A program made the position numbers and the translations under genes. Source: a virus (lineage: Duplodnaviria; Heunggongvirae; Uroviricota; Caudoviricetes). Taken from it: a stretch of 44,198 bases of DNA. The stretch is from IMG/VR virus record IMGVR_UViG_2541047823_000013. The stretch is one strand, 5' to 3'. How positions within the stretch are numbered: the first letter of the stretch is position 1; every line of letters begins with the position of its first letter. The notes under the pieces are model-generated. The model saw nothing but the letters and a program-made list of their open reading frames with translations, was not told the DNA's origin and searched no databases. Positions 16,113-16,454 of this stretch are shown here, piece after piece.

Positions 16113-16454
16113 TCAGGGTGCAGAAGGACTAAAGATAAACGTTTTCTTCACGCCTTTACACGGCCTGTCCTTCTCAAATCGCCATTTTGCCATCGCCTTT
16201 ACAACCTGCTCATCAAACAAATGGTGCGGCTCTGAACGGATAAACTCAATTCGGGTGACAGTACCATCAGCACCAATATCAAACTTCACATCAACCCGTC
16301 CCTTTATATAATTTGCCGCTGCATAGGCCGGATATTGTGGTAATGCCTTAACCAACTGTCGGGGCATATCTGTTTTATGTTGCGTACAGCCCATAACCAG
16401 AGAAGACAACAAAATAATTAACGGAAGATTTCTTTTCATTTTCATTCCCGGCAC
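16113..16454 (-). CDS. lipoprotein with TonB C-terminal-domain-like module
   Basis: Signal peptide plus lipobox (LPLIILLSSLVMGC); mature part LPQYPAYAAANYIKGRVDVKFDIGADGTVTRIEFIRSEPHHLFDEQVVKAMAKWRFEKDRP aligns with the E. coli TonB C-terminal domain as I recall it. Confidence 0.7.
   Translation of the reverse strand: MPGMKMKRNLPLIILLSSLVMGCTQHKTDMPRQLVKALPQYPAYAAANYIKGRVDVKFDIGADGTVTRIEFIRSEPHHLFDEQVVKAMAKWRFEKDRPCKGVKKTFIFSPSAP

Follow-up and report, generated by a model that had tools for sequence, protein, structure and literature searches.

A TonB C-terminal-domain lipoprotein carried as cargo by lambdoid prophages, and its possible role as an uncoupled TonB-box binder

The window analysed here is a stretch of 44,198 nucleotides from a Caudoviricetes record (IMG/VR IMGVR_UViG_2541047823_000013), and the gene under study lies on its minus strand at 16113..16439, where it encodes a lipoprotein of 108 amino acids with a TonB C-terminal domain (Pfam TonB_C). 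The open reading frame (ORF) of 113 amino acids that the original prediction, made from the sequence alone, had described at 16113..16454 is present on the minus strand, where it is read from a GTG at 16454. RefSeq starts the protein at the ATG at 16439, which gives the 108-residue product (MKRNL...) annotated in E. coli CE10 as 'TonB family protein' WP_000828068.1; a GGGA Shine-Dalgarno sequence is found 6 nt upstream of this ATG, and a 901-bp stretch with the gene is identical in E. coli CE10 and nine other genomes. Signal peptide and lipobox (MKRNLPLIILLSSLVMG followed by C) are encoded at 16386..16439 (minus strand), and residues 8–18 (IILLSSLVMGC; lipobox LVMGC) match the PROSITE pattern PS51257, as expected from the lipoprotein signal proposed earlier. 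Lipidation is predicted for Cys18, and the lipobox Cys is shared by all 13 sequences of a family alignment. The +2 residue is Thr in the allele of the window (allele A) and Ser in the second E. coli allele (allele B), and the Asp that mediates Lol avoidance is absent from this position. Sorting of bacterial lipoproteins by the +2 rule is well established, and outer-membrane sorting of the protein is predicted from this rule only.

Profile searches identified the domain as TonB_C: Pfam PF03544 was matched with 54.7 bits against a cut-off of 24.6 (E = 1.4e-14) and TIGR01352 with 54.4 bits against a cut-off of 27.1 (E = 1.2e-14), and at E <= 1 TonB_C and TonB_2 were the only Pfam families matched. 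In a phmmer search against all PDB chains the TonB C-terminal domains of Salmonella and E. coli ranked at the top (E = 4e-16 to 3e-15), and the alignments to TonB chains (1u07, 2gsk, 2grx) covered 79–81 residues and were gap-free; the TonB sequence given in the original prediction is that of PDB chain 1u07. An AlphaFold2 model was computed from the 13-sequence alignment and had a predicted local distance difference test score (pLDDT) of 96–98 across the TonB C-terminal domain. Comparison of the model with known structures by Foldseek gave a root mean square deviation (rmsd) of 1.0 Å and a template modelling score (TM) of 0.94 for 2gsk_B (TonB bound to BtuB), an rmsd of 1.1 Å for 2grx_C (TonB bound to FhuA) and an rmsd of 1.3–1.4 Å for 1u07, with TM values ranging from 0.88 to 0.94 (2gsk_B, 1u07); the best fit was to transporter-bound TonB (2gsk_B, 2grx_C). 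The viral structure library BFVD contained no match with E <= 0.001. The presence of an ORF for a TonB C-terminal-domain lipoprotein is confirmed, and the TonB_C assignment of the original prediction holds in profile and structure searches alike.

The fold covers residues ~26–104 (16128..16364, minus strand; phmmer, AlphaFold2 model and Foldseek) and follows the order short strand, YP motif, helix 1, β1, β2, helix 2, β3. In the numbering of the 108-residue protein, signal peptide and lipobox (1–18) are followed by a tether of about ten residues (TQHKTDMPRQ), a strand (28–30), a helix (38–42), two strands (47–55 and 61–70), a second helix (76–84) and β3 (94–103), after which five residues (SPSAP) remain to the C-terminal end, compared with nine in TonB. 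Relative to the TonB C-terminal domain structures (PF03544; 1U07, 1XX3, 2GSK, 2GRX, 8RD6) the fold is the same (rmsd 1.0–1.5 Å) at 37–42% sequence identity, and the YP motif, the aromatic core and the TonB-box-pairing strand β3 are common to both. Y36-P37, which corresponds to TonB Y163-P164, is invariant or nearly so in the family alignment, and F180, G186, P198, F202, W213, P220 and F230, which studies of TonB emphasise, are kept, while Y215 is replaced by Phe. The position of TonB Q160 is occupied by Leu in the window protein and by Tyr in allele B, and that of R166 by Tyr throughout the family. The TonB box of FhuA pairs in parallel with β3 of the TonB domain, and the TonB substitution Q160L restores activity of TonB-box mutants of FhuA and of colicin M (both reviewed in PMC11658791). 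Judged from the model, the elements for TonB-box pairing (YP motif, strand β3) are intact in the window protein, and the Q160-region segment is present as well.

What the protein lacks is the remainder of TonB. Models of full-length TonB equivalogs (NCBIfam, PRK10819) scored 49–74 bits against cut-offs of 265–448 and were matched only over their last 65–85 positions (profile positions ~150–240). The membrane anchor and the proline-rich rod of TonB have no counterpart in the 108-residue protein, the N-terminus of which is a lipoprotein signal peptide; a link to ExbB/ExbD is therefore missing, and energy transduction by the lipoprotein is not possible. With a TonB_C match outside the full-length architecture, the protein is a member of the TonB_C domain family and not a TonB; it is prophage-encoded and predicted to be lipid-anchored in the outer membrane, whereas TonB resides in the inner membrane.

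Two alleles of the gene, A and B, occur in E. coli and are 72% identical in protein. Allele A was found in 414 of 5426 complete E. coli genomes, some of which have as many as 4 copies, and also in Stx1a phages, JLK-2012 and Lys8385Vzw. Allele B was found in 1224 of the 5426 genomes and is present in classical phage 21, where it is annotated as 'TonB C-terminal domain protein', and in the icd prophage of UTI89, where it lies beside iss. Five of the differences between A and B fall within eight residues of the segment that corresponds to TonB 158–165, and this clustering in a region that shows genetic interaction with TonB boxes may reflect different target preferences. In phage 21, sitBCD, part of the iron/manganese importer SitABCD, lies downstream of the tail-fibre genes (locus L129 9968..12001; OL657228.1 21967..24502), so that this phage, which integrates at icd, carries sit genes, bor/iss and the allele-B gene, several envelope and metal cargo genes together.

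Selection on the gene was estimated from both alleles. Between A and B, dN/dS was 0.18/1.46 (~0.12); among 22 allele-A sequences 19 synonymous and 7 non-synonymous segregating sites were counted; and in the window and the fetched loci 82 of 82 allele-A copies were intact. These values indicate that the TonB-domain gene is under purifying selection. Older annotations ('partial tonB-like membrane protein encoded within prophage CP-933N', 'TonB fragment') treat the gene as a piece of tonB, and some allele-B copies are frameshifted, as would be expected of a captured, non-functional fragment that is passively carried. The strength of the purifying selection, the complete set of intact allele-A copies, the purpose-built lipoprotein signal in place of the TonB N-terminus and the maintenance of this architecture down to ~35% identity across genera make such a dead fragment very improbable.

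The window holds a decayed lambdoid prophage that adjoins btsS/yehS, as in E. coli CE10, in the annotation of which the large terminase and portal genes are frameshifted and the tape measure gene is truncated next to btsS. In the window the large terminase (12860..14522, minus strand) is split into two overlapping ORFs (13533..14522 and 12860..13666). The TonB-domain gene and other cargo are intact although the prophage is defective. The late genes on the minus strand follow one another in the order Q, tRNAs with a TolA-like gene, a SASA-family esterase, holin (19139..19354), lysozyme (17582..18109) and the spanin genes Rz (i-spanin, 16778..17245; an ORF annotated as 'lysis protein' in CE10) and Rz1 (o-spanin, 16840..17025, from the ORF list), the latter embedded in the former. 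Downstream of Rz/Rz1 follow a spacer of 323 nt, the TonB-domain gene, ylcI on the opposite strand, an HNH endonuclease gene (15373..15738, minus strand) and the small terminase gene (14519..15082, minus strand). The slot between Rz and the packaging genes that had been proposed for the gene is thus found both in the ORFs and in the CE10 annotation. The parallel drawn earlier with bor applies to the post-lysis cargo slot and fails for orientation: bor runs opposite to the late operon and the TonB-domain gene along it. The products of lambda bor and of iss are, as is predicted for the TonB-domain protein, outer-membrane lipoprotein cargo encoded between Rz and the packaging genes, and their genes are neighbours of the TonB-domain gene in phage 21 and UTI89; their sequences are unrelated to it, and the function claimed for them is serum resistance. 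A terminator scan of 15300..17400 gave no candidate around the gene and none between Rz and the gene.

The spacer between Rz and the gene is composed of two parts. Directly after Rz, and outside the gene module, lies a conserved lambdoid spacer of ~190 nt (16588..16777, minus strand; blastn), which was detected by blastn in distant mode in 398 phage records including lambda, most of them without the TonB-domain gene. Its identity among the records is 77–97%; it occupies ~47569..47748 in a lambda record, is also present in many Stx phages, and for the most part has no annotation or is named 'hypothetical' or 'Rz-like spanin'. A search for structured RNAs or riboswitches in the stretch between Rz and the gene gave no Rfam match at E <= 1, and an 80-residue ORF that overlaps the spacer (16548..16790) had no Pfam hit; the spacer may serve as a linker for recombination between modules or be an element not yet recognised. 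Next to the gene lies a module-specific leader (16440..16590, minus strand; upstream alignment window against phage 21), of which 130–150 nt travel with the gene and find their homologue in the sequence upstream of the gene in phage 21. Since this leader travels with the gene and follows a spacer that is common to phages without it, the gene behaves as an insertable module. Lambdoid prophages and related ones appear to carry it as a self-contained unit of cargo.

Relatives were collected by an exhaustive profile-free search of 1.84 billion representatives. Among the best matches were many proteins of ~105–135 residues with 33–49% identity that consist of a lipobox, a short tether and TonB_C, an architecture that is kept across genera down to the ~35% identity given above; ordinary TonBs and multi-domain proteins were also among the matches. 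One scan of viral contigs returned near-identical E. coli copies only. In Klebsiella-type and other phage contigs and in a Serratia prophage (locus L093) the gene occupies the slot after holin, endolysin and spanins and before terminase on the same strand, and the lysis and terminase modules around the phage copies are of several unrelated types. In L093 the stop codon of the TonB-domain gene overlaps the start of the next late gene. A viral contig (L163) has one spanin pair before the gene (645..1190 and 868..1122) and a second Rz/Rz1-like pair after it (2085..2549 and 2305..2511), which suggests that the gene arrived by recombination between two lysis cassettes. Around the homologues in genomes of Raoultella, Klebsiella, Serratia, Erwinia and Pantoea, lysis or terminase genes could not be recognised, and comparison of the flanks of the genome-contig loci with phage lysis and terminase proteins gave no homology except in L093; these genome copies, L093 excepted, therefore lie outside recognisable prophages. 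When ORF translations were inspected by eye, genome copies looked chromosomal, those in Raoultella and Klebsiella apparently lying near lacZ/lacI-like genes and others beside YedK-like genes.

The PHROG database assigns the family to lysis: the window protein matches phrog_1267 ('Rz-like spanin', category lysis) at 6.3e-43; P0035, P0039 and P0040 match this PHROG family too. The remaining PHROG matches of the window protein are phrog_34172 and three weak ones (E 0.04–0.3), none of them a named exclusion family. Taken at its word, the label would make the product an o-spanin of the Rz1 type, with which it shares the proximity of its gene to lysis genes and, by prediction, the nature of an outer-membrane lipoprotein. 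In the window, phage 21, L093 and L163 the gene has a complete Rz/Rz1 pair upstream of it, the product is a folded α/β TonB domain and not a short proline-rich protein, and chromosomal homologues at non-phage loci match phrog_1267 as well. The spanin reading was rejected for these reasons (separate spanin pair, TonB fold, chromosomal family members) and its truth is barely conceivable; together with the dead fragment it is essentially excluded. Because every phage examined has a complete spanin pair and the product is a folded TonB domain, the PHROG label is wrong. Tools that use PHROG will propagate the error, and its correction is immediately useful.

The gene and its domain are already annotated, and the bare observation is not new. 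A predicted outer-membrane lipoprotein of TonB_C alone, the phage slot shared across genera, the chromosomal relatives and the Fur-type sites considered below appear to be undescribed; full-text literature searches turned up no paper on the TonB-domain lipoprotein or its function. Co-orientation with the late genes, prior annotation and commonness of the gene, the chromosomal relatives and the Fur-box-like sites had been missed in the original prediction.

The position of the gene raises the question of a role in the lytic cycle, in which the product, made late, would protect the progeny in the manner of Llp by masking or jamming TonB-dependent receptors of the dying cell and of its debris, or would otherwise aid the breakdown of the envelope. 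The slot after the spanins and before terminase, with the gene co-oriented, is kept in E. coli alleles A and B, Klebsiella phages and Serratia prophages, in L093 the gene overlaps the start of the next late gene, and the scanned stretch between Rz and the gene is free of terminator-like sites. The same position, however, is the classical cargo hot-spot occupied by bor; the gene stays intact in prophages that can no longer make particles, has chromosomal homologues outside any prophage and is associated with Fur-type operators, which argue for non-lytic expression; and binding of a TonB domain is not known to change the external, phage-binding face of the receptors. A lytic role is accordingly regarded as improbable.

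A candidate regulatory site (16456..16480, minus strand; sequence reading and Fur-consensus scan) lies directly upstream of the gene and combines a -10 element, a palindrome and a Fur-box-like 19-mer. The candidate extended -10, TGtTAGAAT at 16480..16472, was found by eye and is overlapped by a perfect palindrome, AGAATAAG-a-CTTATTCT, at 16476..16460; a generic sigma-70 scan of 15300..17400 reported nothing upstream of the gene on its strand and left the extended -10 unflagged. For the Fur scan, the 100 nt upstream of 21 family members were compared with the consensus GATAATGATAATCATTATC, and P values were obtained by dinucleotide shuffling. The 19-mer of the window (16474..16456) matched at 13/19 (P = 0.043) and has the same distance from the start codon as the stronger boxes of its relatives. 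In 13 of the 21 family members the best site scored 14–17/19 at 28–65 nt from the start codon, with P <= 0.005 in ten; among these were phage copies (L162 with 16/19, L164 with 15/19, the Serratia prophage L093 with 16/19, and L155 and L157 with 14/19 each) and chromosomal copies (L091 with 17/19, L087 and L096 with 16/19). The tonB gene is itself Fur-regulated, and the promoters of tonB genes in the loci examined, used for calibration, scored 12/19. Among 302 control regions upstream of ORFs, which include those of the family genes themselves, 1.7% reached 15. Allele B scored 10/19 because a 13-nt deletion takes out half of the palindrome. On the strength of these motif scores it is inferred that the family is typically under Fur-type iron control with its own promoter; for the window copy, Fur-type control is only suggestive. 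An antisense promoter-like site inside the gene (16285..16312, plus strand; TTCACA-16-TATAAT, 11/12) points towards Rz, and about two such sigma-70-like sites are expected by chance in the region.

The Fur-box-like sites tie the family to the iron regulon and keep alive the alternative, named earlier, that the protein alters iron uptake, a positive role included. In that case it would be an outer-membrane scaffold induced by iron starvation and a positive or modulatory accessory of TonB-dependent iron uptake, which might keep idle transporters or periplasmic binding proteins in readiness or might help to recycle TonB; the prophage copy would then be iron-fitness cargo and not a defence. Such an accessory would be in keeping with strong sites (15–17/19, shuffle P <= 0.005) upstream of chromosomal and phage copies alike, with stable chromosomal homologues outside prophages in several Enterobacterales and with the presence of the iron/manganese importer sitABCD in phage 21, the carrier of allele B. 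An uncoupled TonB domain, on the other hand, has no known way to promote transport, the only experimental precedent with a TonB domain free in the periplasm (Howard 2001, cited by PMC9841981) is one of inhibition, and allele B, the very neighbour of sitABCD, has no Fur box. An accessory function is judged unlikely on balance.

A further explanation is that the TonB_C fold serves here as a generic binding module with another target, for example peptidoglycan or some other protein of the envelope, and that the product is an envelope-remodelling or virulence lipoprotein like Bor/Iss. TonB_C does occur in many architectures other than TonB (the multi-domain matches, and gliding-motility proteins in NCBIfam), the gene lies beside iss/bor in phage 21 and UTI89, and the protein departs from TonB at R166 and in the Q160 segment. 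Yet the closest relatives in sequence and structure are the enterobacterial TonB C-terminal domains, the core and the β3 edge are conserved, and the Fur-type sites point to iron and TonB biology, so that binding of another ligand is considered rather improbable.

Interference with, or modulation of, TonB-dependent import is the most likely activity of the lipoprotein. The original prediction had proposed competition for TonB boxes that blocks phages or colicins or alters iron uptake, and this inferred function is plausible. In the more specific form favoured here, which is put forward tentatively and with less than even confidence, the protein is a putative outer-membrane-tethered, energy-uncoupled TonB-box binder that dampens the TonB-dependent entry of colicins and phages. 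After lipidation it would be sorted by the Lol system into the outer membrane's inner leaflet (+2 rule), and the tether of about ten residues would keep the domain just below the transporter barrels, at their periplasmic rim, the place where the N-terminal end of the TonB domain (Q160 region) meets the TonB box. TonB boxes would be bound through β3. Without coupling to ExbB/ExbD such binding would be unproductive, and the lipoprotein, concentrated in two dimensions, would compete with the scarce real TonB, so that TonB-dependent import would be lowered and the lysogen protected from TonB-dependent colicins, microcins and phages. Transcription would start at the gene's own promoter, in most of the family with a Fur-type iron-responsive operator, and the protein would be made at the time when the receptors are de-repressed; the gene would be transcribed by read-through from the late operon as well. 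Control by Fur would be sensible for a protective protein because iron limitation makes the receptors more numerous and thereby heightens the sensitivity to group B colicins and TonB-dependent phages. The TolA-domain-III lipoprotein of the same prophage, described below, was counted as context for this TonB-domain decoy.

Two kinds of precedent bear on the proposed TonB-box binder. PMC9841981 describes strong competition among transporters for TonB binding and cites Howard et al. 2001 (J Bacteriol 183:5885) for the inhibition of iron import mediated by TonB-dependent transporters when a periplasmic TonB domain is overproduced. As described there, the engineered fragments are, like the lipoprotein, energy-uncoupled periplasmic TonB domains and so constitute a direct dominant-negative precedent; they are artificial, soluble and overproduced, whereas the lipoprotein is natural, predicted to be tethered to the outer membrane, only 37–42% identical to TonB and probably under iron-responsive control of its own. 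Llp of T5 and Cor of phi80, N15, HK022 and T1, lipoproteins of superinfection exclusion, provide a conceptual precedent: all are small lipoproteins that phages encode and that reside in the outer membrane's inner leaflet (a location that is predicted for the TonB-domain protein), and Llp and Cor act on the TonB-dependent transporter FhuA from the periplasmic side. They are unrelated to the TonB-domain protein in sequence and fold (TonB_C only in Pfam, PHROG and fold comparisons), and they are FhuA-specific and alter its external face, whereas a copy of the TonB domain would be directed at the TonB box, which all such transporters have in common.

Several points weigh against this binder. Inhibition in the engineered precedent depended on overproduction. 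Chromosomal homologues in Klebsiella, Raoultella, Serratia and Erwinia have Fur-type sites, and a physiological role in iron uptake fits such putatively Fur-controlled copies at least as well as defence does; an inhibitor of iron import that is induced by iron starvation would, moreover, be costly. The Fur-like site of the window is weak at 13/19, and the commoner allele B has none. A form of allele B with a one-base deletion, which lacks β3, makes up a cluster of 130 sequences (P0012). The replacement of R166 by Tyr and the difference between the alleles in the Q160 segment make a target other than the classical TonB boxes possible. Finally, a search against the PADLOC defence models gave no match beyond a chance-level hit (E = 0.022).

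A second lipoprotein of the prophage is built on the same principle. Two identical copies of a gene for a 142-residue lipoprotein with TolA domain III are present (22604..23032 and 25667..26095, minus strand; Pfam and phmmer). The protein has the lipobox LASLTTGC with Thr at +2, and its C-terminal 89 residues correspond to TolA domain III (Pfam TolA C-terminal, 3.8e-23; phmmer to E. coli TolA, 1s62, 8e-27). Both lipoproteins thus combine a lipobox with the outer-membrane-proximal C-terminal domain of an envelope energy transducer; they differ in domain family (PF06519 in the TolA type), in slot and in the length of the linker, which is longer in the TolA type. The TolA-type gene lies in the stx position, after Q and tRNAs, and is misnamed 'tolA: cell envelope integrity protein TolA' in RefSeq; related alleles occur in 896 of 5426 E. 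coli genomes and in one sequenced phage only (mEp460_ev081). Linkage of the two types in sequenced phages is unsupported, the sole TolA-type record not being among the 15 TonB-type records. By analogy, the TolA-type lipoprotein may act as a decoy against colicins that depend on Tol or against filamentous phages.

The two TolA-type copies belong to a tandem direct duplication (21759..24821 and 24822..27885) with a unit of 3063 bp and one mismatch. Included in the unit are the esterase gene's 5' end, the TolA-like gene, the interval from there to the porin gene (in CE10 annotated with tRNAs and a methylase fragment) and the 5' part of an ompC-like porin gene; this prophage porin gene (24242..24850) is truncated at the duplication junction. 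In AR_0017 the region of the TonB-domain gene and the TolA-like gene are 100% identical to the window, with a single TolA-like copy, so that the duplication in the window is either strain-specific or an artefact of assembly.

Taken together, the two lipoproteins admit a broader and more speculative reading, which is rather doubtful as it stands: temperate phages of Enterobacterales would practise 'energy-transducer mimicry' with uncoupled, outer-membrane-anchored docking domains of TonB and TolA. Colicins, microcins and phages on their way in would have their TonB boxes and TolA-binding regions trapped on the inner side of the outer membrane, Fur de-repression would turn on the TonB copy at the time when its target receptors are abundant, and in phage-21-type prophages of extraintestinal pathogenic E. 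coli the TonB-independent importer SitABCD would offset the iron cost.

About 30% of complete E. coli genomes carry either allele (414 + 1224 of 5426; genomes with both are counted twice), and the carriers include O157, O103 and UTI89-type strains, in the last of which the gene lies beside iss. Should the lipoprotein bind TonB boxes, it would represent a dominant-negative TonB of natural origin, and lysogenic conversion would gain a new mechanism. If this is true, the lipoprotein would close the import gates for colicins, microcins, phages and siderophore-antibiotic conjugates (cefiderocol-type drugs, albomycin), the prophage content of a strain would partly predict its susceptibility to such agents and to therapeutic phages, and a ready-made tool for probing the docking of TonB to transporters would be at hand. 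If iron uptake is helped instead, the Ton system would have a new accessory in this protein, which would count as a fitness factor together with sitABCD. The Fur-type sites of the family are an annotation point that is useful whichever reading holds.

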